64,000 nt of DNA. It comes from Desulfomonilia bacterium (GTDB lineage Bacteria; Desulfobacterota; Desulfomonilia; UBA1062). The notes under the pieces were generated by a model that had not been told where the DNA came from, ran no database searches, and saw only the letters and a list, made by a program, of their open reading frames with translations. A program made the translations under genes and the position numbers. This document shows, piece after piece, positions 1 to 12,191 of this stretch. Within the stretch, counting starts at the first letter, position 1. Each line of letters begins with the position of its first letter. The stretch is taken from contig JBEKDT010000001.1 of the NCBI GenBank assembly GCA_050014195.1, positions 320,001-384,000 on the forward strand. The letters are read 5' to 3'.

Positions 1-1488
1 TTGTCTTCTCACTTCTGCAAGTTCCACGTATCCGGTTCTCTGGATGATACCTCTGAATGATCCTCCTGCTTCGATTGACTGAAGCTGTTCGTTGTCTCCC
101 ACCAGGATCACTTTTGCTCCTGCTTCATGGGCGTGCTCTAAGATCTTGTGCATCTGTCTGGTGCCCACCATACCTGCTTCATCTATCACCAGGATCTGGT
201 CTTTGCTGAGTAGATTTCTCTCATTTTCCCAGTCCTCCAGTTGTCTGAAGATGGTTGTGCTTTCGATCCCGCTTTCATTCTGCAGACCTTCTGCTGCTAT
301 GCCCGAAAGGGCAAGGCCTCTTACCCGATATCCTCCTGCTTCATACGCCTCTTTTACAGCACCCAGTGTGTAGCTTTTCCCTGTTCCCGCTCGACCGATC
401 ATCACGGAGATGTCGCCACTCGCAGAGATGTTTCTGAAGGCTTTTTCCTGCTCCTCGCTCATGGTGTAGTTCTTCGCTGTCTGGTTGATGATATCCCGTT
501 CCAGGACGTGTTCATTTGAAGATATCATGACTCTCGCATTATCGAGCATGGTCTTCTCATTCATCATCATGGTACGGGTGGAGAACAGGTCTTCTCCCTT
601 CTCGTTCTTCCCTATCTTGATGAGCTCGGGGCTGTTCTCAAGGGCGGATAAAACCCGGTTGAACTGATCTGCATCAGCACTGTGCCGGAATGCAAAATCC
701 ATGATGTCTTCCCGCTTGAACACAGCATCGTAGTGTCCCACGTGCTTGAGGGCCTTCCCGGGATCTTGGATAATACGGTCTCCGTTTTCACGGCATATCC
801 TCTGGTACTCTTCTAACCGATCAAGTCCTCGGGTTTCTTGCAAGTGGAGGTAGCCTTTGGGTAGGTATTTTGCAGCTATCCCTATCTTCGTTGTTGGTTC
901 AAGATCAATGCCTCTTTCTTCAAAGCTCCTATGGTCAACCTGGATATCGTGACCTGACTCCAGCAATTTCCGGTTCTGGATATTCGCCCACTCTTCCCTC
1001 CAGATAAGGATATTTGCTCTATCGTTCCAGGATCTTTCCTTATTGCCGAATCCGTTTGGTGTTACTTCTCTTGTGGTAAGTAAGATATGAACATGCGGGT
1101 TCTTATCGCTCTTGTGGATACAGATATCAGCTATCATTCCTCTATCTACGAATTGTGCTTGTACATATTCTCTGACCAGCACAATCTGTTGTTCGAGGTT
1201 AAGCTCCTTGGGTAGCGCTAATTCAACTTCCCGTGCGAGCTGGGCGTCCTTCCTCTTCTCTGCTCTTTCTACTTCGTTCCAGAGGGTTTGCCGGTCTCTC
1301 ATTCTCTCCGGGGCATTTTCCGGGAGGAGGATCTCCGCATGGGCAAGGTCTTTCTTCTTCGAGTAATCAAAGGTAAGGTCCTGACGCTCATCATAGAGTT
1401 TTTCACGGCTTCGATATGCAGCAGCAGAAACTGCGCTTCTTCCTGAAGACCTGCTTACTATCTTAGTTGTGGAATGATAACACGCCAT
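1..1488 (-). CDS. traA: Ti-type conjugative relaxase-helicase TraA (MOBQ/MobA-MobL family), runs off window start
   Basis: Not in ORF track. Manual translation from ATG 1488: MACYHSTTKIVSRSSGRSAVSAAAYRS...DAQLAREVELALPKEL...ADICIHKSDKNPHVHILLTTR, then helicase motifs GRAGTGKS, LVIDEAGMV, LVGDNEQLQSIEAG. Confidence 0.95.
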   Translation of the reverse strand, partial: MACYHSTTKIVSRSSGRSAVSAAAYRSREKLYDERQDLTFDYSKKKDLAHAEILLPENAPERMRDRQTLWNEVERAEKRKDAQLAREVELALPKELNLEQQIVLVREYVQAQFVDRGMIADICIHKSDKNPHVHILLTTREVTPNGFGNKERSWNDRANILIWREEWANIQNRKLLESGHDIQVDHRSFEERGIDLEPTTKIGIAAKYLPKGYLHLQETRGLDRLEEYQRICRENGDRIIQDPGKALKHVGHYDAVFKREDIMDFAFRHSADADQFNRVLSALENSPELIKIGKNEKGEDLFSTRTMMMNEKTMLDNARVMISSNEHVLERDIINQTAKNYTMSEEQEKAFRNISASGDISVMIGRAGTGKSYTLGAVKEAYEAGGYRVRGLALSGIAAEGLQNESGIESTTIFRQLEDWENERNLLSKDQILVIDEAGMVGTRQMHKILEHAHEAGAKVILVGDNEQLQSIEAGGSFRGIIQRTGYVELAEVRRQ

Positions 1489-1528
1489 TCTTATTTCCGA
1501 TTAATCCTTATCCGGTTCTGCTTTCCGC

Positions 1529-1560
1529 ACACGACGCTTGCGTTGTATTAGTGCGCCTTT
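1529..1560 (+). promoter_or_regulatory. oriT, MOBQ-type nic site
   Basis: ACGACGC-TT-GCGTTGT inverted repeat followed by ATTAGTGCGCCTTT, resembling the RSF1010/Ti nic consensus TAAGTGCG^CCCT; lies between divergent traA and mobC. Confidence 0.8.
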
Positions 1561-1740
1561 CCTTCGTAAAGTATTTAGCCCTTCGGTCTGCTCTCGCATG
1601 GGGGTTGCCTCGTACGTTACGATAAATCCCGATACGCTATCGGGCTCATGAAAAACCTTGAAGTGCTCTCGCTTGACATCTAACCTCACATAATTTAAAA
1701 CATAACAACATTTGTATTTATATTACTTTGAGAGGGCAGA

Positions 1741-1995
1741 ATGCAACCGAAAAAACCAGATTCACTCACAAAACTTCTGCAGAAAAAACAGAAGATCGAA
1801 CAACAGATTTCAAACGCCAAGACCCGCCTAAAGAAAGTGGAACGGGCCGCAGACACGCGGAAGAAGATCCTCATCGGCGCTTACTTCCTTGAAGTCAAAT
1901 ATAAAGGCAAAGAGGAAGAGCTCACCAAGATCATGGATGGCTTCCTTATCCGTGATAATGACCGGGCTCTCTTCGGCCTTCCGCCAAAGGGGTAA
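1741..1995 (+). CDS. mobC: Mobilization accessory protein, RSF1010 MobC/MobS-like
   Basis: DTRKKILIGA...DGFLIRDNDRALFGLPP closely resembles the MobC C-terminus; divergent from the relaxase across oriT. Confidence 0.8.
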   Translation: MQPKKPDSLTKLLQKKQKIEQQISNAKTRLKKVERAADTRKKILIGAYFLEVKYKGKEEELTKIMDGFLIRDNDRALFGLPPKG

Positions 1996-2013
1996 TGATT
2001 CTCTAAAAGTTAG

Positions 2014-2529
2014 CTAGTCGAATAAAACAGCCCTTCTCGGCCTTATTCTTCCGGCTCCGGGTATTTCCCTTTTCTCGGCCTTTCTTTTATGGGTTGGGAC
2101 AGTCGAAATTTGCATACCTGCTGCGTATATTTCGTGCTTCCTGACGACGTCGAGAAGACCGTCGAGGTAGTCTTCGATGTCTTGTCCCTCTTCTGTTGAT
2201 TCATAGCGATACGTTTCTATCATATCGCCAAGGCAATCGGCTATCGCTGCCTTGATATCTAGAATGGCCAATGGTTTTAGATCACTGCTCACTTTGCTTA
2301 GGAAGTCATTGAGCTTCTGGGAAGGAATCTCATAATTGATTATCTTTTCATAGAGGTCACCGATACCGGAAACATATTCATAGGGTTCATCCTCCTTTGA
2401 GATGGAAAGGATACCCTTATATTTTTCTTCAATCTGACGGTAAAACTCGGAGAAAGGGTCCCGTGAACTTTTTGATCTGCTTGTGCAACTCTCATCGTTC
2501 TGTTCCGTCTTCTGAATGATAGCTCCCAT
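2014..2529 (-). CDS. Hypothetical acidic leading-region protein
   Basis: ORF with GAGGAG RBS before ATG 2529; preceded by repeat copy 1. Confidence 0.65.
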   Translation of the reverse strand: MGAIIQKTEQNDESCTSRSKSSRDPFSEFYRQIEEKYKGILSISKEDEPYEYVSGIGDLYEKIINYEIPSQKLNDFLSKVSSDLKPLAILDIKAAIADCLGDMIETYRYESTEEGQDIEDYLDGLLDVVRKHEIYAAGMQISTVPTHKRKAEKREIPGAGRIRPRRAVLFD

Positions 2530-2565
2530 TGGATAACTCCTCAAACTTAAACTTTCCCAAAAACA

Positions 2566-2737
2566 TTTTTCCTGAACCCCTTCACAAAGCCCTGAGGGGT
2601 TTCAGAAAAATGATTCAAAAGACTGCGGAGCCATCCTTAGTGGGTATTGAGATCCTTGAGCCTCTGTAACGCTGCAAGCGGAATGACAATGGTTTTCCCA
2701 TTGGCGTGAGGCTTATCGAAGCGAGTGAAAGGGGCGA
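2566..2737 (-). repeat. Conserved upstream two-hairpin repeat, copy 1
   Basis: Shares GACTGCGGAGCC, CCTCTG, TGCAAGC-N4-TGACAA...TTGGC-N5-GCTT and the T-rich/CCCC..GGGG/A-rich stem with the other copies. Confidence 0.85.
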
Positions 2738-2821
2738 TGATTTAAAGAGATCAAGACCACAAAGTTGTCCCTCATAAAGCTGCCTTAAAAAATAACAGGA
2801 GATAAGCTTCCAAGACGATCC

Positions 2822-2850
2822 GGCCTCCGGGTCCATAAGACCCGGAGGCC
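2822..2850. terminator. GC-rich hairpin downstream of DUF4942 gene
   Basis: GGCCTCCGGGTC-CATAA-GACCCGGAGGCC perfect 12-bp stem; no clear U-tract. Confidence 0.5.
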
Positions 2851-2859
2851 ACTTTGATT

Positions 2860-3636
2860 TTATACTGACTGCAGCTTGTCACATCCGGCAATCTTGTTAA
2901 TCTCACAAACTAAATCCATGCGTTTGAACCGGATATGCATGTTTCCATTTTTATGCCATGTGCATTCAAAGTATTCTGTTTCTGTTTGCCATTTCTTTTC
3001 CCTCATGGCGTCTCTGATTCTTGTGAGAAGATTACCCGGGTACTTTGGCATGCCCGCACCATCCAGCAGATGAAATATCTTGTCCATGTCCCATAAGCTG
3101 TCTTCCCTGTAGCCGGAGAGGGTTGTCCAATACTTGTTATGGTCAATCATTCCCGGGATGATGGCTTTTTCTTTCAAGGCAGTGCGCTGGTTGGTCTTGA
3201 GGCCGGTCCTCTGCGGCCTCAGGAAGTTGAACACGTCTTCAATCATCTGCTTTTTAAACTCATCCCCACGGGTGATAAAGGAAAACATCAGCTTGTGTAT
3301 ATTTTCCTCCGTAAATTCGGGTACGTTCCCATCAGAAAGCTGCTTCTCGATACTCGAAATTTCTCTGGCCGGAAGAAGGTTCTTGATTCGCGAAAAGAGG
3401 ACTTTCCAGCAGTTAATCCGTACACCCTTCCTTGAGTCCTCTTTGTCCCTTTCAGGGTCGTATAAATCCATATCATAACGCCCTATCTTGCATGGGAAGA
3501 ACCGTCCCCCTATGATCTTCTCATAGAGTCCTTTTATTCTGACGAGCCTTGCATAAGCCTCATCCAGATCGGCCAATATTTGCTGATAGGCTTTAACGAG
3601 ATCACTTGTTTTCATTTCAGTCAAAAGATCGTTCAT
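2860..3636 (-). CDS. DUF4942-like protein (mobile-element associated)
   Basis: C-terminal ETEYFECTWHKNGNMHIRFKRMDLVCEIN and LWDMDKIFHLLDG resemble DUF4942; strong RBS GGGAGG before ATG 3636. Confidence 0.7.
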   Translation of the reverse strand: MNDLLTEMKTSDLVKAYQQILADLDEAYARLVRIKGLYEKIIGGRFFPCKIGRYDMDLYDPERDKEDSRKGVRINCWKVLFSRIKNLLPAREISSIEKQLSDGNVPEFTEENIHKLMFSFITRGDEFKKQMIEDVFNFLRPQRTGLKTNQRTALKEKAIIPGMIDHNKYWTTLSGYREDSLWDMDKIFHLLDGAGMPKYPGNLLTRIRDAMREKKWQTETEYFECTWHKNGNMHIRFKRMDLVCEINKIAGCDKLQSV

Positions 3637-3692
3637 GGATATTCCTCCCTTTGAATTATTGGCCTCCAGGGAGTTCCACCCCAGAAAACCAA

Positions 3693-3860
3693 TTTTTTCC
3701 ATGACCCCTTTCACAAAACCCTTAAGGGGTTAGGAAAAAAGGATGATAAGTTCGCGCAGCCACCTTGAATAATCCTGGGCATCCTGGATGCCTCTGGAGC
3801 ACTGCAAGCGGCATGACAACTCAGTTGGCAGGACGCTTTGAAAGCAAGAGAAAGAGGCTA
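3693..3860 (-). repeat. Conserved upstream two-hairpin repeat, copy 2
   Basis: TGCAAGCGGCATGACAAC-TCA-GTTGGCAGGACGCTT plus proximal stem with TTCACAAA loop. Confidence 0.85.
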
Positions 3861-3898
3861 GGCACTATTTTCCAGGATTAAAGCTAAAAGCATAAAAC

Positions 3899-3922
3899 GG
3901 ACGCGGCGCATGCGCTGCGTCC
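3899..3922 (-). terminator. Probable intrinsic terminator after ardC
   Basis: GGACGCGGCGCATGCGCTGCGTCC hairpin, followed on the minus strand by GTTTTATGCTTTT. Confidence 0.55.
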
Positions 3923-3935
3923 GGGAGCAGAGGAA

Positions 3936-4817
3936 TTACCCCTGCCCTGTTTCATCTTCGTGGTCATCGTCCTCTTGCCTGCCCGTGATGTAGTTGACTG
4001 CTTTCTGGGCCTGGGCCGCCGCCAGAACAACAAGCTTTGAATCCTTGCTGATAGAGTCCCTCCACCCTTGGATATATGCTGCTGAGTTCTCAATGGTGGC
4101 ATGGGCAATGCCGGAGATCCCGCACAAGTAAGCTGCACCCATCTCGGCAACAAGCTCTTCCCGGGCGTAACTCTTCGAGCCGAAAGCCGCCGGTGTGGTC
4201 AAGGTTTCCCGGTTGAGTCGTGTTTCTGAGCCTGTGCTGTGGGTTGTCTCATGAAATAGTACACTAAAATATTTCTCCTGGTTCACAAAAGCTGACTTGT
4301 TCGGCATCTTCACCACGTCCTCGATTGGGTTATAGCAGGCCTTTGTGAATCCGTGCTTTATCTCAGGCCTTCCCTTATATCCTTCTATAATGGCCTCTGC
4401 CTCGACTATGGGGTCTGAGTGAGACTCTTCCGGCTGGTCGGGATAGGTGATCCCTTCGCACTGCAGGACATTGAATACCCGGTAATACTTCAGGAAGGGT
4501 ATGTTCTTCTTTTCCATCTCGCTCGTTGCCTCGTTGAGCTCCTCTACTTCCTTAAAGTTCCAGAAAACCACTATAGAGCTTTTCTCACCCTTCTTGATGG
4601 TCCCTCCAAGGGTCTTGGCCTGGTTGAAGGTGAGCCAGTAGGGAGAGGCATAGCTTGAAGCAAGGAGCAACCATATATTGATGCCCCGGTAAAGCTTGCT
4701 CGTTACCAGGTTACGCGGAAATAGGATCTTGCTGGTCCATGGTTTTTTCCAGGGAATGATACCCTTGTCCAAGTGCGATAAAATCTGCTCGGTCACGATC
4801 TCGAATACGTTAGCCAT
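3936..4817 (-). CDS. ardC: ArdC-family ssDNA-binding antirestriction protein with zincin-like domain
   Basis: IPWKKPW, YRGINIWLL, WLTFNQAKTLGGTIKKGEK, VLFHETTHSTG, YAREELVAEMGAA; RBS GAAGGAGG. Confidence 0.93.
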   Translation of the reverse strand: MANVFEIVTEQILSHLDKGIIPWKKPWTSKILFPRNLVTSKLYRGINIWLLLASSYASPYWLTFNQAKTLGGTIKKGEKSSIVVFWNFKEVEELNEATSEMEKKNIPFLKYYRVFNVLQCEGITYPDQPEESHSDPIVEAEAIIEGYKGRPEIKHGFTKACYNPIEDVVKMPNKSAFVNQEKYFSVLFHETTHSTGSETRLNRETLTTPAAFGSKSYAREELVAEMGAAYLCGISGIAHATIENSAAYIQGWRDSISKDSKLVVLAAAQAQKAVNYITGRQEDDDHEDETGQG

Positions 4818-4844
4818 TTGTCTTTCCCTCCTTCTAAAAATCAA

Positions 4845-5002
4845 TTTTTTTCAACCCGTTCACTCCTGACTCATGGGTTGAGAAAAAATCGGAGAGATAA
4901 AGACTGCGGAGCCTCCTTTCATAAAACCTCTGAAGCGCTGCAAGCAGCATGACAACGAGTTCTATGTTGGCAGGATGCTTAGAAGGCGAGCGGAAGTGGC
5001 GA
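4845..5002 (-). repeat. Conserved upstream two-hairpin repeat, copy 3
   Basis: TGCAAGCAGCATGACAAC-N9-GTTGGCAGGATGCTT plus proximal stem. Confidence 0.85.
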
Positions 5003-5518
5003 AGGTTCTGAACATTTCAGAATTGTGTATAAAATCTGTTCACCATTAAGCCTAGGTTGCGTTCAAAGAACCGGGCAAAGGGATGGCTTTTTCGATCTTA
5101 ATATATAGAATCCACATGACTTATAGAGACCTATGATCTTTCCTGATTAAGTCGATTCTTAGATCTTCCAGAGATAGATTCATTCCCGACTGATACAATC
5201 AGGTTGCCTTATCTCAGAGTAGCTTATCTGGTTGATTATTGAAGGATGTTGAAATTCAGGATCTATTGTACTTGAGAAGCTCCTAATCATCGTATAGAAT
5301 TCAATTTAAGAAAATGCTATTATATTAATTAATGGTACACTGTATCAATTGACATCGGGCTTCTAAATCTTACTCACAATATGAAAAGAGGAGACCTGAC
5401 TTTTGTTCCCATTCACCGCTAGAGATATTCTTTTTAAAACTCTGAATCAACCTAAGAATTTCGATCATCCGGCTTTTGGAAGTGATGCTAAAACCTTCAT
5501 GGGGTTAAGATAGAAAAA

Positions 5519-6916
5519 ATGCTGACGACATTCGAGATCTATCGAAGAGCTGAGAAGTGCTTCGAGAAATGTTTACCACCTGAGTGGATTCCTACTAAAC
5601 CCAGGGATGACATCGGAGTTGATTATTGGGTGCAAATAACACGACGCGGAAGCCCAACCCCTTTAAGCTTTTTTGTCCAGGTCAAAGGCACAACAAATAT
5701 AAAGGAGACAGGGAGTTCTCTAGTTTACTCATTGTCGACGAAGAAGCTCAAGCAGTACATGAAGACGCCACTACCAGTTCTGTTTGTGCTTTGCGACATT
5801 AGAGAAGAAGAGGATGCCGATATTGCCTACTTTTGTTGGGTGCGCGAAGCCATAAGGGACGAGGTTCTTGCTGGGAGAGTGAACGAGGCAAGCTGGGCTT
5901 CCCAAGAAACGGTGTCCTTAGCCATACCTATTAAGCAGAGGTTATCTCTTGACATTTTTTTAGAAGAGATACAACCAGTCATCGATACTTTTGCAATTAG
6001 ACATGTCCAACAAGAAAATGAACATTTGGCTGTAGTAGATAAATCGAAGAAAGCCATTACATCCTTGCTGTCTTCTGGAAGGCTTAAAGAATTTGGATTG
6101 AATACCGAAGATCCAAAGACCGTAACAGCCTTAGAGTTTATGTCTGAGGGGGGCCGGTTACAGGATCAAGCCCGCCACATGGAGGCGATCTACTATTTTA
6201 AGGCGGCCGAAAAGCTTCTGCCCCATGATGAAACATTCCTTGCTGAGAGCTTCAGTTGGGAAGCATTAGGCAATTTACAAGAAGCGGTCAGTGCTTGCGA
6301 AAGAGGATTGGTTCATCATCCTGGACACCCTTATCTTTTATCACAATTAGGTGTCTATTATTTTAGAAGTGGTCAAATACATGAGGCTTTCGATCTTCAT
6401 GTACGTGCGGCACATGCAAAACCGGAGGATGGCGGTCTTTGGGCGAATGCAGGAGCAACTGCTGAGTTAATCGCTTCAACTCTTCATGGGGAAGATGCAC
6501 AAGCCGCTCTGGAGGCATCTGCCCGGTTCTTTGAGAAAGCACATCATTGCAATCCGCAGAGTGATTTTATTTTGAATGACTTTGGGCTAGTTTGCTCAAG
6601 ATTGTATCGCTTCCCTAAGGCCGTAGCTTTATTTGAAAAAGCTATAGCCATTAACCCCAAGAACATAACTGCACGCAGAAGGCTGGCCAGGGCTTATCTC
6701 TCATTGAAGCAGTATGATGAGGCTCATGCTCAAGTCCTTACAATATATGCAATGGGCGCACGAGATAAGGAGACCGAGAATATGGAAGCTTTGATAGAAG
6801 ACAACAGAGCAGGGCCTAGAAAAGACAGTTATGCCCAAATGATGAATAGTATGCGGAGATTCGAATTCGGTGCTACGAAGAAGGGACCAAAACGGAAGAA
6901 AAAGCGGAGACGTTGA
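5519..6916 (+). CDS. DUF4365 (PD-(D/E)XK-like) domain + TPR protein, putative defence cargo
   Basis: DDIGVDYWVQI...FFVQVKGT...LPVLFVLCDI at the N-terminus; multiple TPR-like repeats (e.g. KAVALFEKAIAINPKNITARRRLARAY). Confidence 0.75.
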   Translation: MLTTFEIYRRAEKCFEKCLPPEWIPTKPRDDIGVDYWVQITRRGSPTPLSFFVQVKGTTNIKETGSSLVYSLSTKKLKQYMKTPLPVLFVLCDIREEEDADIAYFCWVREAIRDEVLAGRVNEASWASQETVSLAIPIKQRLSLDIFLEEIQPVIDTFAIRHVQQENEHLAVVDKSKKAITSLLSSGRLKEFGLNTEDPKTVTALEFMSEGGRLQDQARHMEAIYYFKAAEKLLPHDETFLAESFSWEALGNLQEAVSACERGLVHHPGHPYLLSQLGVYYFRSGQIHEAFDLHVRAAHAKPEDGGLWANAGATAELIASTLHGEDAQAALEASARFFEKAHHCNPQSDFILNDFGLVCSRLYRFPKAVALFEKAIAINPKNITARRRLARAYLSLKQYDEAHAQVLTIYAMGARDKETENMEALIEDNRAGPRKDSYAQMMNSMRRFEFGATKKGPKRKKKRRR

Positions 6917-7212
6917 TATTGGGTTTTAAATGCGCATTCTCGTTTTCGAGTTGTGCCACGGATCTTGAACAGGATACGGTACTGAAAAGAAGGTTTAAGA
7001 TCGTGGAGACAAAAGATCCCTATCCAAATCGCTTTTTCAAAGGCTTCTGAAGTAATATATACTTTTAAGTCCTTATGACTGGCGTATAGATAGTGGTACG
7101 CTAGTTATACACTCTCTTCCTGGCCTTGGAAGTTTAAAGAACATAATAAAAAATCTCTCTCCTGAAGATCGATTCTCATCTAACCAAGACTGAAAAATAA
7201 CAGAAAATAAAA

Positions 7213-7404
7213 GCCCCCTCCGCTCGCTCAGAAAGCAGCACGCCAACATTGTGACCATGTTGTCATGCTGCTTGCAACGCTACGGGTGTCTCCTATGGTC
7301 ACTATCCGTGACCACCTTCTTATATGGTGAGCCTTTCAGGCTTGCTTTTCTCCGGTCGTTCCTCCCTTCCCCTTCAGTCGTTTGTGAAAGGGGCAAGGGA
7401 GGAA
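7213..7404 (+). repeat. Conserved upstream two-hairpin repeat, copy 4 (inverted, before xis-int)
   Basis: AAGCAGCACGCCAAC-N12-GTTGTCATGCTGCTTGCA is the reverse complement of the core in copies 1-3; proximal stem TTCCTCCCTTCCCCTT..TTTGTGAAAGGGGCAAGGGAGGAA. Confidence 0.8.
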
Positions 7405-7444
7405 AAGTTGGTTTTTATGTTTAAAGACTAAGGAGAGAAAGACA

Positions 7445-7693
7445 TTGGCTTCCTCTAACTCATCGGTATGGCTCACGGCAAAGCAGGCATCCGAATATGC
7501 GGGTGGTATTAACGAGAAATACATCCGAGAGTTATGGGCACGTGGCCTGATGCGATACTCAAAGCCCGATCTTGGACAGATGGTCACTAAGAGAGAATGG
7601 ATAGACGAATACTTAGAGAGCAGGGAAGTAAAGGGCGGAGTTGTACTAGACAATAAGATTGACAACATCTTGAAGGACGTTTTTAATGCGTAA
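7445..7693 (+). CDS. Excisionase-like winged-HTH protein
   Basis: WLTAKQASEYAGGINEKYIRELW...TKREWIDEYLE; small gene overlapping the integrase start. Confidence 0.7.
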   Translation: MASSNSSVWLTAKQASEYAGGINEKYIRELWARGLMRYSKPDLGQMVTKREWIDEYLESREVKGGVVLDNKIDNILKDVFNA

Positions 7694-8921
7694 AATGGGC
7701 GTAAGTGTTGTTGAACATCCAAAAGGATCTGGTGAATTATATTTATTGGTCTGCCATCAGTACAAGAAAAAGTACATCCATGTTGGCAAGAACACTAAAC
7801 CAAACCGTGTTATCGCAAACCAGAAGAAAGAGCTAATCAATCAGAAGATCAAAGAGCAGGGACATAAGGCGCTCAACAGACTCTTTGAAATCAAATCACA
7901 GGCTCCTACCCTTAAACAGTATCTAAATGGTTTTGATGATAATCCCGGCTGGCTTGCAAAGAACAAGAAGCGACTCAAATACAGCACCTATAAGGGATAT
8001 GAGAATCTTATCAATCAGAGGTTACTCCCGAGATATGGAGACAAGCCCCTGGATCAATTCGATAAGGAAGAGTTTGAAAACTATCTCTTTGAGCTCTCCG
8101 AGTTCAAGCCTAAGAGTTTAAAATATCATACACTCGCGAATATTAAGAACTGCTTATCGGGCATACTGGAATCCGCAGTACCCAAGTATATCAAATCGAA
8201 TCCTATTCATGGACTGATAATTCCCAAAGATAACCCAGATGAGAACAAGGATGAGATGAGCCCCTTCACCTGGGAAGATAGGTCGACATTTGAATCTAAA
8301 GTTAAAGAGCATAGGCCAAGATATTATGCACTTGTGGTAATGGGATTTAGATCCGGCCTCCGCATTGGTGAGATCATTGGCTTGAGGGTTTCAGATATTG
8401 ATTTTGTCCACAACTATATCAGCGTGAGGAATAACATTACCAGGGGAAGAGGCACCACTCCAAAAAGTGAAGCCGGAAGGCGTAAGGTTCGTTTGACAAA
8501 TGAATTGAAAACTATTCTCCAGAAACAGATCACTGCCGTTAAGGAAGAGGCTCTCAGCAAGGGTTGGAAGAAAGTGCCTGAGTGCGTATTTATAGGGGAA
8601 ACAGGGAACAGGATAAACTACGGCAATTTTCTTGATCGAGTATGGAATTACTGCATGGAGAAATCAAAGCTCTCTCGCAGGACCCCTCACGATATGCGCC
8701 ACACGTATGCAACCTTGAGACTCAGTCTTGGACATCCCATTCATGAGGTTTCAAAAGAGCTTGGGCATAGTTCCCCCAATATCACTTACAAGATTTACTA
8801 TCATTGGATACCCCAGATGAGCACAAGTAATATAGACGATTTAGATAGAAAACCTACTAGAGAATTACTAGAGAATAAACCTGAAAATATGGTAGAGAAT
8901 GTCTCTAGTAGCAATAGTTAA
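7686..8921 (+). CDS. int: Tyrosine recombinase / site-specific integrase
   Basis: SGLRIGEIIGL, TPKS, HDMRHTYAT, LGHSS...TYKIYYH catalytic motifs. Confidence 0.95.
   Translation: MRKMGVSVVEHPKGSGELYLLVCHQYKKKYIHVGKNTKPNRVIANQKKELINQKIKEQGHKALNRLFEIKSQAPTLKQYLNGFDDNPGWLAKNKKRLKYSTYKGYENLINQRLLPRYGDKPLDQFDKEEFENYLFELSEFKPKSLKYHTLANIKNCLSGILESAVPKYIKSNPIHGLIIPKDNPDENKDEMSPFTWEDRSTFESKVKEHRPRYYALVVMGFRSGLRIGEIIGLRVSDIDFVHNYISVRNNITRGRGTTPKSEAGRRKVRLTNELKTILQKQITAVKEEALSKGWKKVPECVFIGETGNRINYGNFLDRVWNYCMEKSKLSRRTPHDMRHTYATLRLSLGHPIHEVSKELGHSSPNITYKIYYHWIPQMSTSNIDDLDRKPTRELLENKPENMVENVSSSNS
8855..8910. repeat. Putative integrase arm-type binding sites
   Basis: TACTAGAGAAT twice in tandem (8855-8876), TAGAGAAT (8893-8900) and inverted TCTCTAGTA (8902-8910), 45-100 bp from the att core. 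Confidence 0.55.
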
Positions 8922-8953
8922 TCTATTGATATTGATTGTTATTTAATCAGATA

Positions 8954-9004
8954 AACGGTCTGCAAAACCGTTATTCACCGGTTCAAATCCGGTTGCCGCC
9001 TCCA
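8954..9004 (+). other. att site: duplicated 3' part of tRNA-Cys(GCA)
   Basis: AACGG-TCTGCAAAA-CCGTT anticodon arm, T-arm ACCGGTTCAAATCCGGT, 3' acceptor strand and CCA; the 5' acceptor strand and D-arm are absent. Confidence 0.9.
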
Positions 9005-9051
9005 GTTTTTTCAACGAGTTATAGCCCACCAACTTTGATCGATATCAATCA

Positions 9052-9504
9052 TTATTCTGAACTATCTGTGTCTGTACTCTCTTCCAAGACAATATCATCC
9101 ACATCTAAAGCATATTCAGCCTCGACTTCATTAACAACCTCGATCAGGTCATCCCTCTCTTCCGGGGCAGTAATGATGGGATCGGCTTTTGTCATGGTGA
9201 ACGGTCGCCGCCTTTTCTTCCGCTTGTGCAGCCCCTTTGCCTCTTCATTATTCTGGTCTTCTCCACATGAAGGGCAAAGGGGCTGTGGTCTGCCCAGGTC
9301 ATAAAACTTGGTCCCGCACTTATAACACTTGTATCGTGTCCCGAGATCGACTACAGAAAGCTCCTCTTTCTTGGGTTGAGTCTTCACGACTACAGGAGTT
9401 TCTTTTTTCTTGGGTTGCTTCTTCTCGACTGCAGCAAGCTCCTTCTTCTGGGGTTGCTTCTTCTCGACTGCAGAAATCTCCTTCTTCTTAGGTTGCTTCT
9501 TCAC
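9052..9504 (-). CDS. FYDLN-acid (TIGR02300-like) zinc-ribbon protein with N-terminal Lys-rich repeats
   Basis: DLGTRYKCYKCGTKFYDLGRPQPLCPSCG and acidic tail; four 13-aa repeats KKQPKKKExxxVE. Confidence 0.8.
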   Translation of the reverse strand: MKKQPKKKEISAVEKKQPQKKELAAVEKKQPKKKETPVVVKTQPKKEELSVVDLGTRYKCYKCGTKFYDLGRPQPLCPSCGEDQNNEEAKGLHKRKKRRRPFTMTKADPIITAPEERDDLIEVVNEVEAEYALDVDDIVLEESTDTDSSE

Positions 9505-9508
9505 AATC

Positions 9509-9784
9509 TTATTTATTCACCGCGTCTTTCAATAATTTGCCTGCCCTGAAACGAGGAGCCTTGCTTGCCTTGATCTTTATCTTCTGCCTGGTCTGGGGAT
9601 TTACGCCTTCTCTGGCTGCCCTCTTGGCAACATCGAAGGTTCCAAAGCCTACTAAGGTTACCTTATCGCCTTTCTTGAGGGCACTAGCAATTGACTCTGT
9701 GAAAGCATCTACCGCTAGTTGTGCAGCTGCTTTGGATATCTTTACTTTGCCTGCCATAACATCAACTAAATCTGATTTTGTCAT
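9509..9784 (-). CDS. hup: DNA-binding protein HU
   Basis: [11 protein letters not shown]...[10 protein letters not shown]...GVNPQT...[13 protein letters not shown]; RBS GAGGAGG. Confidence 0.95.
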
Positions 9785-9987
9785 AATATCCTCCTCGTAT
9801 TTACCAAACCACCTATTATCATGCTCAGCCCATTCTTCATGAGCTGAGTTCATGAAGAATGGCTCTTACTGTGGTTTGAACATTATTACTTCTATAATAT
9901 AACAATAAGACAATGTCATCTTTTTCATTATAAAACCACCTCTCGATATATATTTTTATATGATCAAACCATCAGGAGGAATGCCTT

Positions 9988-10125
9988 ATGACAACAACAG
10001 CGATTGGAGAAGAACTGCTATCCGAAATGCTTTATAACCCTGGGATCCATAGCCAGGAGATCATGGACCATATGTGCATAGCAGCGGGTATAGTTGAGGA
10101 TGATATAACCCATTCGATTGCCTGA
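9988..10125 (+). CDS. Possible small protein (45 aa)
   Basis: AGGAGG RBS 8 nt before ATG; MTTTAIGEELLSEMLYNPGIHSQEIMDHMCIAAGIVEDDITHSIA; no recognisable family. Confidence 0.3.
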   Translation: MTTTAIGEELLSEMLYNPGIHSQEIMDHMCIAAGIVEDDITHSIA

Positions 10126-10170
10126 ATCCAGGATAAGATCGGATTCTCAGCAAGGCATTGATGCATCTTC

Positions 10171-11196
10171 TCATTTGCTTTCTGTCTTGTGCTGTTCGTA
10201 TAGGTCGTAATGTACCTTGAGTATATCCGGAATCGGCAGCTCATAGGGGCAGCGGTCAACACATTCCCTACATTCCGTGCACAATGCTACGCTTTCCATG
10301 GGGATTTTAGAGAATTCGACTGCGACCTGGGGCGACATTCTGGATGCAATCACCTTGTAGCCCATGGCCGCGGTGATCATTACACCTTGAGGGCATGGCT
10401 GGCAGTATTCGCACCTCCGGCAGAACTGCTTACCAAGCTCGAGGCGATATTTTTCCATGAGCTTGAGGTCTGTTTCTGTCACCGTGTTCGGTTGCCGATA
10501 AAAAGAGACAATTTCATCAACCCTTTCTGAAGAATCGAAACCCGGCAGAGCTACAACATAGGGGTGCTCCCGCAGGAACTTGAAAGCAATTCCGGCATTG
10601 TCGATCATCCCTCCAGCAAAAGGTTTCATGGCAAGGATTCCCATACCGCGCTCGCGCGCAGCAATGTGGAGCTCGTCTTTTGCAGCATCCTCTATGAAGT
10701 TGAACGGAAACTGCACGGTGCTGAACATGCCTGTTTTAACAAGCTTCACCGCCATTGCGAGGTTGTGGGAAGTAACCCCGATGTATCTGATCTTGCCCTG
10801 TTCCTTTGCCTTGATTACAGCCTCCATCGCACCGCCTGGTCCGGTAACGATATCCCAATCTCTTTCTTGGGCTATTTGATGCAACTGGTATATGTCTATA
10901 TAATCCGTCTTCATCATGTGAAGAGAGTTCTCCAGTTGTTCAACGGCACCAGGGGCGTCTCTGCGAATCGTCTTGGTGGCAAGTATGATCTTGTCCCGCA
11001 CATCCCCCAAAGCACGTCCGATCTTCTTTTCACTATCGCGGTAGGCATTGGCCGTGTCGTATAGGGTTATTCCCGACTCATAAGCCCTACGCAGTACGGC
11101 CACGGCTGTATCTTCGTCCAAGCGGATTATGGGAATACCCCCAAAACCCACCTCGGATACCGTCAAACCCGTTTTGCCTAAGGGAATGTAACGCAT
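10171..11196 (-). CDS. Aldo/keto reductase with C-terminal 4Fe-4S dicluster
   Basis: LGKTGLTVSEVGFGG, YDTANAY, DYIDIYQLH; CRRCEYCQPCP and CTECRECVDRCPY. Confidence 0.92.
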   Translation of the reverse strand: MRYIPLGKTGLTVSEVGFGGIPIIRLDEDTAVAVLRRAYESGITLYDTANAYRDSEKKIGRALGDVRDKIILATKTIRRDAPGAVEQLENSLHMMKTDYIDIYQLHQIAQERDWDIVTGPGGAMEAVIKAKEQGKIRYIGVTSHNLAMAVKLVKTGMFSTVQFPFNFIEDAAKDELHIAARERGMGILAMKPFAGGMIDNAGIAFKFLREHPYVVALPGFDSSERVDEIVSFYRQPNTVTETDLKLMEKYRLELGKQFCRRCEYCQPCPQGVMITAAMGYKVIASRMSPQVAVEFSKIPMESVALCTECRECVDRCPYELPIPDILKVHYDLYEQHKTESK

Positions 11197-11232
11197 TATT
11201 CAACCTCCTATGGTCATGTTGCATTCTTCATG

Positions 11233-11352
11233 TTAAGCATTCTTTTGCTTATTGCAACCATTGGTTGCAGTATCATGCAAGGCTGTGCAAGCAGTTGACA
11301 TTGATATTTTTGCTTTGCCTGCAATAACATCAACTAAATCCGTTTTTGTCAT
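11233..11352 (-). pseudogene. Truncated duplicate of the HU 5' end
   Basis: MTKTDLVDVIAGKAKIS matches [19 protein letters not shown], then diverges and stops at 39 aa. Confidence 0.75.
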
Positions 11353-11497
11353 AACTACCGCCCCGTATGTATTGAAAAAATATGGTGGGAATCTACTGTA
11401 GGCTACTTCAACTTATATTGTTATATTGCCTTTGCCCAAGCTACCACTATTTCACGAGACATCTCAAGACTCCCTGGGAGTTTTGATAGCTGATACC

Positions 11498-11788
11498 CTA
11501 CTCAGTCTTCTCCCTCAGCTTATATTTCCCTTTGCCCAGGTAAATCAGATAGTCCCTGCCATTGCGATAATATTTCCAGGAGGTATGTTCCGGGGCTGTT
11601 GATATGACGGTCGTGTTGAAGCTTATCTTGTTCAGGTCGGGATATTTCTTGATTGCTTGACTGTCCGTGTTCCGGGTATAGTGCAAAGAGACTAGATAAA
11701 ATATTTTTCCATGTCTATGGAAACTATTTTCTCTAAAAATTACTTTCCATATTCCCGGCGAATCATATTTCTTTAGAATCATTGGCAA
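11498..11788 (-). CDS. Hypothetical protein, possibly a gene remnant
   Basis: ORF track only; no motif recognised. Confidence 0.25.
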   Translation of the reverse strand: MPMILKKYDSPGIWKVIFRENSFHRHGKIFYLVSLHYTRNTDSQAIKKYPDLNKISFNTTVISTAPEHTSWKYYRNGRDYLIYLGKGKYKLREKTE

Positions 11789-12191
11789 TTTAAAATAGAT
11801 CGCCTAGCATAAATTTTGCTTTAATATTTTGTATATGAGAAAGGGGAAATAATCATGGAACACATTATTGAGCAACAAACTCATGTCAAGCATGTCAGGA
11901 AAAGGATTTTTTCATTATTTACTATTTGCATTATAGACTATGAGAAAATAGTTACAACACCTCATCTTGTTGAAATGAGACCGACACTGCAATCCCACAC
12001 AGAGAAAGTTCAGAATGGCAGGGTTTCGTACCTCATAGACCTGCAGGTATGATTGCAACCAACGAACTCTTCTCTTACTCACGGATAGGTGTTTAAGATT
12101 TAATCAGTAAAAAATTCGAATATTGATAATAATATCGGGTATTGTAGTTTTGTCATAGAGTTGAATAATCAGGTCCAGGCTTCTTCAAAAA

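Follow-up and report, generated by a model that had tools for sequence, protein, structure and literature searches.

The 64,000-nucleotide stretch of Desulfomonilia DNA considered here (the window; contig JBEKDT010000001.1, positions 320,001 to 384,000) opens with the last ~9 kb, on the right, of a ~60-kb integrative conjugative element (ICE), which we call element A (C1:269-329 kb), and within these 9 kb four copies of a repeated cassette of 170-200 bases stand in front of genes. An earlier look at the bare letters of this DNA, referred to below as the sequence-only reading, had located the four copies exactly where we find them and had claimed that each precedes a gene, as is borne out by a co-oriented open reading frame (ORF) behind all four. 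It had further proposed that each repeat forms a hairpin which assembles a split sigma-54 promoter only in single-stranded DNA, the -24 element coming from one arm and the -12 element from the other. Each cassette is made of two modules (Table 1). Module b is an imperfect hairpin of 78 nt. Module a, which in every copy immediately precedes the ribosome-binding site, forms an almost perfect stem-loop that contains runs of T and A and has GTGAA conserved in the loop. Copies 1 to 3, of the kind called leading-type below, face one way, and copy 4, of the integrase type, faces the other. We present evidence that module b is a fold of the template strand of the gene behind it, and discuss whether it may act as a hairpin promoter and whether sigma-54 may be what reads it.

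The gene-sense arms of module b are TTGTCATTCCGCTTGCA (2673-2689, minus), TTGTCATGCCGCTTGCA (3803-3819, minus) and TTGTCATGCTGCTTGCA (4939-4955, minus, and again 7260-7276, plus), just as the sequence-only reading gave them. Its account of the partner arms, which on the other strand read TTGGCGTGAGGCTTAT, TTGGCAGGACGCTTTG, TTGGCAGGATGCTTAG and TTGGCGTGCTGCTTTC, stands for the TGGC part and falls for the part described as lacking a GC, for an A-rich bulge of 5-6 nt is followed by a GC, the same in all copies, whose pairing partner is the GC in TTGCA. The hairpin that had been described is likewise real and had been drawn too short: it extends over ~78 nt, from 3-5 bp outside the TGGC/TGTCA box to ~13-18 nt past the GC, and its 5' block GCCCCTYCCGCTCGC pairs with sequence 3' of TTGCA. 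The arrangement of bulge plus GC is the minimum-energy fold in three of the four window copies. Just past the GC, where opened bases had been predicted, the fold sets three sense-arm bases (A, R, C) opposite two and leaves them unpaired, and beyond them follow two pairs, a 3x3 loop and six pairs. One extra pair beside the GC (columns 15/89 of A5) was considered and dropped, as its two sides vary independently. With the GC set at -14/-13 in the numbering of PMC10083551, the stem covers about -30 to +3, which places the predicted start sites near 2661, 3791 and 4927 on the minus strand and 7288 on the plus strand.

That this pairing is genuine is indicated by covariation among the copies. In a first set of 26 sequences, 86.4% of cells were paired against 27-42% with the partner arm slid, 14 pairs changed on both sides and none of 500 shuffles did as well; in the enlarged set of 84 distinct sequences, drawn from 117 matches to the covariance model, the corresponding figures are 86.3% against 28-42%, with 15 pairs changed on both sides (183 cells) and again none of 500 shuffles as good. 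Compensatory changes of the arms occur even among copies within a single genome, which shows selection for pairing inside one molecule and speaks against a palindromic operator. The claim that the register is kept while the loops vary also holds, spacing being constant and loops ranging from 3 to ~20 nt. The most regular stems are those of the integrase-type copies, with 2 mismatches in 17-19 bp.

The same alignment tells which strand folds. On the template strand 45 mismatches become G.T pairs, compared with 25 on the sense strand (28 and 7 when two speculative pairs are left out), and at the commonest variable position the template strand has G.T in 59 and A-T in 25 of the 84 sequences. DNA folding energies agree with what had been suggested, the template strand of copies 1 to 4 reaching -14.0, -15.5, -13.6 and -18.4 kcal/mol and the sense strand -12.0, -9.4, -7.6 and -12.6 kcal/mol. 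From the G.T counts and the energies together we conclude that it is the gene's template strand that folds. Module a shows no strand preference in its wobble count (11 vs 11).

Table 1. Features of the right-hand part of element A at the start of the window (positions in window coordinates)
Feature	Positions	Strand	Evidence or remark
Relaxase gene, 5' part (MobA/MobL + AAA_30 helicase)	1..1488	-	Open ORF running past the window edge; PF03389 3.7e-76, PF13604 9.4e-50
oriT-like site	1531..1565	+	Inverted repeat ACGACGC-TT-GCGTTGT, then TTAGTGCGCCTT; 10/12 to MOBQ oriT consensus core
Gene behind copy 1, 176-amino-acid protein	2014..2544	-	Without match to any known family
Copy 1, hairpin a	2564..2612	-	Near-perfect stem-loop, presumed 5' leader; conserved loop ..TTTGTGAA
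Copy 1, hairpin b	2657..2736	-	Promoter-like stem; sense box TGTCAT-N5-TTGCA at 2673-2688; 71.1 bits, covariance model
Terminator-like hairpin 3' of DUF4942 gene	2822-2850		
Gene behind copy 2, DUF4942 protein	2860..3645	-	PF13708 8.7e-35
Copy 2, hairpin a	3693..3740	-	
Copy 2, hairpin b	3787..3859	-	79.5 bits
Palindrome + T run behind ArdC gene	3898-3923		Terminator-like
Gene behind copy 3, ArdC (ArdcN + zincin peptidase)	3936..4814	-	PF08401 2.2e-32, PF18818 9.6e-34
Copy 3, hairpin a	4844..4889	-	
Copy 3, hairpin b	4923..5001	-	85.4 bits
Copy 4 (integrase type), hairpin b	7212..7292	+	Orientation opposite to copies 1-3; 82.7 bits
Copy 4, hairpin a	7359..7404	+	
82-amino-acid ORF, in the place of a recombination directionality factor	7445..7693	+	Overlaps integrase start
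Tyrosine integrase	7686..8921	+	PF00589 7.1e-21
46-nt copy of tRNA 3' part, right end of element	8955..9000	+	Direct repeat at C1:269092-269137, 60 kb leftward

The cassette is a family with many members in this genome. The 17-mer TTGTCATNCNGCTTGCA, with at most one mismatch, has 15 matches in the 4.2 Mb and its reversed control none, so that the repeat is not due to chance, and an nhmmer profile of the four copies recovers 15 full copies, all with TG-CA and TTGCA, plus one decayed piece of hairpin b. The latter (G000 C1:121878-121943) lies near the far end of a second element, element B, and has TGTTA for TGTCA, a 3-nt insertion and TTGTA for TTGCA. The remaining copies are spread over at least four further elements. 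The genes behind the copies of the genome encode ArdC (three), DUF4942 (two), DUF2958 (two), proteins of 169-189 amino acids without known family (four) and integrase operons (four). One cassette of element B (L011:1307-1969 = G000 C1:91806-92468) precedes an IS200-type transposase that lies on the other strand and is not its gene. We examined 29 distinct copies from the present genome and its relatives; 25 of them are followed, ~105-170 nt downstream, by an ORF that has the same orientation and a ribosome-binding site. The similarity among copies begins at the base of the stem, paralogous copies having unrelated flanks.

The boxes on the two arms differ in a regular way. The sense arm reads TGTCAY-N5-TTGCA in the 84 distinct sequences, with fixed spacing and 5-6 intervening bases that covary, and its TG-CA and TTGCA are invariant, an invariance that is inflated because the patterns used for collection fixed AAGC, G-CA, TG-CA, CTTGCA and some 3' bases, which has to be held against the reading favoured below. 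The asymmetry of GT and GG reported by the sequence-only reading is free of this effect, both positions having been left open in the two collection patterns: the sense T, in the place of the second G of a -24 box, is found in 83 of 84 copies and the partner G in 84 of 84. A single change of either base would restore pairing, and neither type of change is seen. The family does not present a GG spaced ten bases from a GC within a single duplex strand (GT 83/84, GG 1/84), and on the partner arm, where GG does occur, the GC is displaced by the bulge. TTGCA with a T on the template strand beside the GC, as in a sigma-54 -12 element, occurs in 84/84. The sole member with TGGCAT-N5-TTGCA on the sense arm, and hence a full canonical -24/-12 site, is a copy before a DUF2958 gene (L264:3035-3113, minus), the partner arm of which is without the GC past the bulge. 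The host makes use of canonical sites: in the genome as a whole we count 28 canonical TGGCAY-N5-TTGCW sites against 5-22 for one-off variants; the GT variant TGTCAY-N5-TTGCW occurs 23 times, 15 of these being the cassette repeats.

The position of the cassettes relative to conjugative transfer bears directly on their interpretation. Beside the gene for a MobA/MobL relaxase lies a site resembling an origin of transfer (oriT), and the leading-region setting claimed for the repeats is thereby upheld. The oriT consensus is written for the nicked strand, and by this rule the orientation of the site makes the plus strand the one that is probably transferred, from ~1560 rightward. The site holds a GTGCGCC core and was compared with the MOBQ consensus core printed in PMC3832669; the 12-mer match taken alone is not significant in the window (6 matches against 3.3 expected), and two other elements of the genome have the same core behind an inverted repeat of different sequence whose halves are still complementary. 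Copies 1-3 agree with a single-strand promoter because the plus strand, their template, is the probable transferred strand. Wherever an oriT-like site could be placed, leading-type copies stand before genes that have the presumed transferred strand as template, in 10 of 10 cases (three in element A, four in element B and three in the element of contig 7).

We consider the following mechanism, which would account for these features. Each copy would be a self-contained early-gene expression cassette of the ICE, in which the upstream 78 nt of the template strand fold into an imperfect hairpin that replaces the double-stranded promoter; transcription would leave the base of the stem, pass through a leader of ~100 nt with the second hairpin and enter the gene. 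In copies of the kind of 1-3, this would allow the genes for ArdC, DUF4942, DUF2958 and small proteins to be expressed in the recipient ahead of second-strand synthesis, in the manner of the Frpo and ssi promoters. The gene strand of the duplex, with TGTCAY-N5-TTGCA, would carry a crippled -24 element (GT) and the duplex would accordingly be silent, while in the fold the non-template arm would supply TGGC and the template arm would retain the full complement of TTGCA, with three bases 3' of the GC unpaired and the bulge of 5-6 nt lying in the -12 box on the non-template arm. Host sigma-54 holoenzyme may bind this folded form, and the disrupted -12 region may reduce or abolish the need for an activator.

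Parts of this mechanism have counterparts in the literature on sigma-54 (sigma-N). Binding depends on the template-strand sequence beside the GC, where a flipped template T or A is captured; mismatches made on the non-template strand only, at the positions beside the GC, give robust complexes; and melting nucleates just 3' of the GC (all in PMC10083551). When the fork-junction structure at -12 is destroyed, activator-independent transcription is obtained in vitro (PMC4551910). The folded cassette reproduces the arrangement of PMC10083551, by analogy with which the sigma-54 idea is plausible, and rpoN is present in the host genome; as all 52 genomes examined from the host family have it, its presence is uninformative on any enrichment.

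Judged as a whole, a hairpin promoter read by sigma-54 is the best explanation we can offer, with a probability of roughly 40%. Its parts deserve separate grading. That the cassette is a template-strand hairpin promoter of some kind has, from the sequence comparisons, slightly better than even odds. Sigma-54 as the reader of the hairpin, taken by itself, is a tentative and somewhat doubtful assignment, and the full version of the split promoter with activator bypass, in which the duplex would be silent, strandedness would be the signal and these would be the first single-strand promoters of sigma-54 type, we regard as unlikely. What the sequences show is the cassette, the hairpin, its strand bias, the boxes and the context; promoter function, the identity of the reader, activator independence and silence of the duplex are in each case things that we infer. 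Of the original proposal, then, the setting, the fold, the asymmetry and the lack of sigma-70 boxes have held, and the orientation of the integrase-type copies and the need for an activator tell against it.

Several results weigh against the sigma-54 hairpin promoter, and the first of them concerns the integrase-type copies. These make up 34 of the 117 matches, and in all 12 loci where both types occur they point in the direction opposite to the leading-type copies, the label being a motif of our own choosing and several of the 12 loci being near-identical to one another. Because their orientation is opposite, the template strand of their genes is not the transferred strand; they have the same boxes and the same strand bias as the leading-type copies. 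What the fold follows is the gene's template strand and not transfer, and a purely single-strand mechanism leaves the integrase-type copies unexplained. As ways out we propose, by analogy, the same fold on the strand retained in the donor, extrusion from supercoiled DNA as at phage N4, or activity in the duplex.

A second group of objections concerns sigma-54 itself. Wild-type sigma-54 is reported to need an AAA+ activator even on pre-opened DNA, the bypass being obtained with Region I mutants (PMC7057263, PMC4551910), and none of the 27 PF00158 matches of the genome lies inside element A (C1:269-329 kb) or element B (~76-122 kb); alignments of the copies show no conserved sequence or enhancer upstream of the stem. 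About 25 bacterial enhancer-binding proteins (bEBPs) of the host could act on the cassettes in trans. Binding may be blocked, not helped, by the bulge in the -12 box and by the G.A mismatch that the -24 box contains. The two GC pairs past the bulge never vary, so that covariation neither supports nor refutes them, a divergent copy (G034) is without the partner TGGC, and the eight TGTCAY-N5-TTGCW sites that lie elsewhere in the genome make the likeness of a single arm to a sigma-54 site weak.

The third objection is the narrow distribution of the design. The cassette family is confined to one family of anaerobic deltaproteobacteria (Syntrophaceae-titled records), being found in 7 of 52 genomes of the host family, with the order-level genome set comprising the identical 52, and in 0 of 70 genomes of the sister family. 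The covariance model matches only 2 of 80 ArdC loci from many phyla and the motif only 2 of 74 other ArdC upstream regions, and from these two counts we recognise no independent lineage with the same design; the conservation of the boxes may thus come partly from shared descent. Canonical TGGYA-N6-TTGC was found in none of the 74 ArdC upstream regions.

Three observations on ArdC loci were made in the same survey. A 7-kb contig titled Dehalococcoidia (L105) has a hairpin b identical to that of the contig 7 ArdC copy of this genome, the result of either cross-phylum transfer or a binning error. ArdC genes titled Smithella or Syntrophaceae (L147, L162, L173, L174, L176, L185; 200 nt upstream) have a different conserved cassette, of which only the 3' end (GTGAAGTTGGTTTTT...) is common to the window family. 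Finally, some 12 ArdC loci titled Bacteroidota (L159, L163-L165, L169, L171, L175, L184, L186, L188, L192, L211) share a conserved region ~60-130 nt upstream of the ArdC start, which on the antisense strand has TGGCACG, a sigma-54 -24 box without any deviation, and at the canonical distance from it TTAA in the place of TTGC; a sense CTGACAT ~45 nt upstream can pair with the TGGCACG box, with a mismatch at the same position as in the window family, and the orientation to the gene is opposite to that of the window family.

Among the alternatives, the one that survives best keeps the single-strand site and changes its reader. The cassette could be a promoter or primer site used by the housekeeping holoenzyme (with TTGNCA as -35 and an unconventional -10), by core polymerase at the internal loops, or by primase, the likeness to sigma-54 boxes being coincidental. 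Known single-stranded DNA promoters (Frpo, ssi) are of sigma-70 type and also make primer RNA (PMC11541004), sigma-70 has no need of an activator, TTGTCA and TTGGCR each agree with TTGACA at 4-5 of 6 positions, and the one-off sigma-54 motif has a background of eight in the genome. A scan for sigma-70 boxes found 11 promoter-like sites, none inside any of the four repeats on either strand, in agreement with the sequence-only reading; the two best of the region (5272-5300, plus, and 5348-5319, minus) lie in an AT-rich island. At the scan threshold no -10-like hexamer occurs 16-18 nt from either TTGNCA on either strand, the bases at 17 nt being, by eye, CAGAGG or GYGGAR, and TTGCA is invariant though it would lie inside the sigma-70 spacer. 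Nor need a pure priming site track gene orientation, yet 25 of the 29 copies do so, with a ribosome-binding site behind them. We hold a single-strand site with a reader other than sigma-54 to be distinctly unlikely. Sites for other regulators fared no better: extracytoplasmic-function-type (-35 AAC / -10 CGT), RpoH-type and CRP-like sites were rejected by eye, and a PhoB box fits in its first half-site and not in its second. An intrinsic terminator was also rejected, as a run of T behind the stem is confined to copies of the integrase type, and this on the antisense strand.

A promoter that acts in the duplex is quite improbable in our estimation, even though it would cover both orientations. 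It would be weak or specially activated, of sigma-54 or another type, and used after second-strand synthesis, with the hairpin appearing only as a cruciform or as template-strand extrusion in supercoiled DNA, as at N4. The integrase-type copies, which cannot use the transferred strand, speak for it, as do their stems, the most regular and, at -18.4 kcal/mol, the lowest in energy of the four, and the one family member (L264) that is a full canonical sigma-54 site. Long mismatched stems with large loops extrude poorly, and the stems here are long and mismatched, with loops of 3-20 nt. GT at -24 is a strong down mutation of sigma-54 promoters, and GT is what the cassettes have, with no activator gene in elements A and B and no conserved enhancer; the leading-type copies, moreover, have the presumed transferred strand as template in 10/10 cases over the three elements where an oriT-like site could be placed. 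The greater stability of the template hairpin over its complement fits extrusion as well, since at N4 such an asymmetry lets SSB, a protein that binds single-stranded DNA, melt the non-template hairpin only (PMC4496689).

It is still less probable that the hairpin is transcribed and acts as RNA, whether as a structured 5' leader, a processing site or the target of a regulator, on a transcript from a non-conserved upstream promoter of its own or from read-through. Several copies have AT-rich sequence with a vague likeness to a -10 element directly upstream, a sigma-70-like site with 9/12 matches lies 150 nt upstream of copy 4, and the second hairpin, beside the ribosome-binding site, is plausibly an RNA feature. 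There is no conserved upstream promoter, however, the flanks of paralogous copies being unrelated, and terminator-like hairpins stand between the genes behind the cassettes. The stem is better on the antisense (template) strand, and a sense RNA would have C.A at the commonest variable position in 59 of 84 sequences. An Rfam search of positions 1-12000 (E <= 1) gave no family that matches the cassettes, its only hits being a sub-threshold partial tRNA and a chance microRNA match.

Lastly, a zygotic-induction regulon in which each cassette combines promoter and operator, as the CUP repeats of IncN plasmids do, and an element-encoded repressor binds the inverted repeat in the duplex, would explain a cassette before each establishment gene including the integrase on either strand, and is very improbable because the compensatory changes of the arms within one genome favour intramolecular pairing over the two half-sites of a palindromic operator, and the loop range of 3 to ~20 nt argues against a dimeric duplex-binding protein.

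The remaining features of the locus place the cassettes in their element. The size of element A, ~60 kb, follows from the 46-nt direct repeat of a tRNA 3' part that bounds both of its ends; at the right end ARAGORN calls no whole tRNA, and the partial tRNA at 8937-8993 scores 26.6 bits, under the Rfam gathering score. The relaxase gene is followed by a 250-nt intergenic region that carries the oriT-like site, across which an ORF of 84 amino acids (1741-1995, plus) diverges from the relaxase gene, in the place of a relaxosome accessory protein; Pfam/NCBIfam-type protein searches gave it no significant family match, and a homologue occupies the equivalent place in element B. Between the leading genes and the integrase, positions 5040-6916 form the AT-rich island mentioned above, with a DUF4365 + TPR protein (465 amino acids, plus), which looks like cargo, perhaps defence. 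The 82-amino-acid ORF that overlaps the integrase start has no Pfam or NCBIfam match, and a relationship to the HTH_17 protein at the equivalent place in the contig 8 element was considered and rejected, none being detectable.

Single-strand promoters let conjugative elements switch on anti-defence genes before the recipient attacks. To our knowledge, only sigma-70-type promoters of this kind, from enterobacterial plasmids, have been characterised. If the cassettes are what we propose, an ICE family from uncultured anaerobes would have arrived at another solution, unrelated to the first, and the strategy would be general and open to another sigma factor. If sigma-54 reads the fold without activator, the cassettes would be a naturally occurring example of activator bypass, a phenomenon that in the sections of the literature drawn on here is reported only in vitro and, weakly, in vivo with a Region I deletion mutant. 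Boxes split over the two arms of a hairpin would also provide a sequence rule for locating leading regions and early genes in metagenomes, and the covariance model marks the cassettes, and the small proteins behind them, as candidate anti-defence genes.

Among known systems, the repeated unit upstream of each leading-region gene recalls the CUP repeats of IncN (pKM101/R46). CUP units are duplex sigma-70 promoters with repressor sites, whereas the evidence for the cassettes points to intramolecular pairing. The early promoters of the phage N4 virion polymerase are alike in being template-strand hairpins more stable than those of the other strand, and they can be used from the duplex after supercoil-driven extrusion with SSB; they differ in having stems of 5-7 bp, loops of 3 nt and a single-subunit phage polymerase, against a mismatched stem of 78 nt here (PMC4496689). 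The 'early-melted' heteroduplex probes of sigma-54 resemble the folded cassette in having GG in a duplex -24 on the non-template strand, native template at and after the GC, and positions 3' of the GC unpaired through non-template changes only, and they still need a bEBP for transcription (PMC10083551). The cassettes, unlike these probes, are natural and folded from one strand, with a G.A mismatch in the -24 box, the bulge of 5-6 nt between TT and GC, and internal loops to +1.

The nearest relatives in kind are Frpo and ssi3 of F and ColIb-P9, from which anti-defence genes of leading regions are driven on the incoming strand. With the leading-type copies they share a place in the leading region, ahead of genes for anti-restriction and establishment whose template is the transferred strand (in our copies, the probable one). 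Like the cassettes, they fold into long hairpins with imperfect pairing, which there imitate duplex promoters, and an element carries several of them (PMC11541004). The cassettes differ in that their stem is shorter (78 nt), with no sigma-70 -35/-10 and with boxes that are sigma-54-like, in that 34 of the 117 copies lie on the other strand before integrase genes, and in their host, an ICE of an anaerobic deltaproteobacterial lineage rather than an enterobacterial plasmid. Copies 3 and 4 have no blastn match at E <= 0.01 among the 72,556 plasmids of PLSDB, in which we assume F and ColIb-P9 to be included, and we found no publication tying sigma-54 or rpoN to single-stranded DNA promoters, Frpo or conjugative leading regions, the list of Frpo candidates in Supplementary Table 2 of PMC11541004, which might hold similar sequences, lying outside this search. 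The match in setting, strand, size and repetition is what likens the cassettes to the Frpo/ssi class, and most likely they are of the single-strand or hairpin promoter kind while being neither members of the Frpo family nor canonical sigma-54 promoters.

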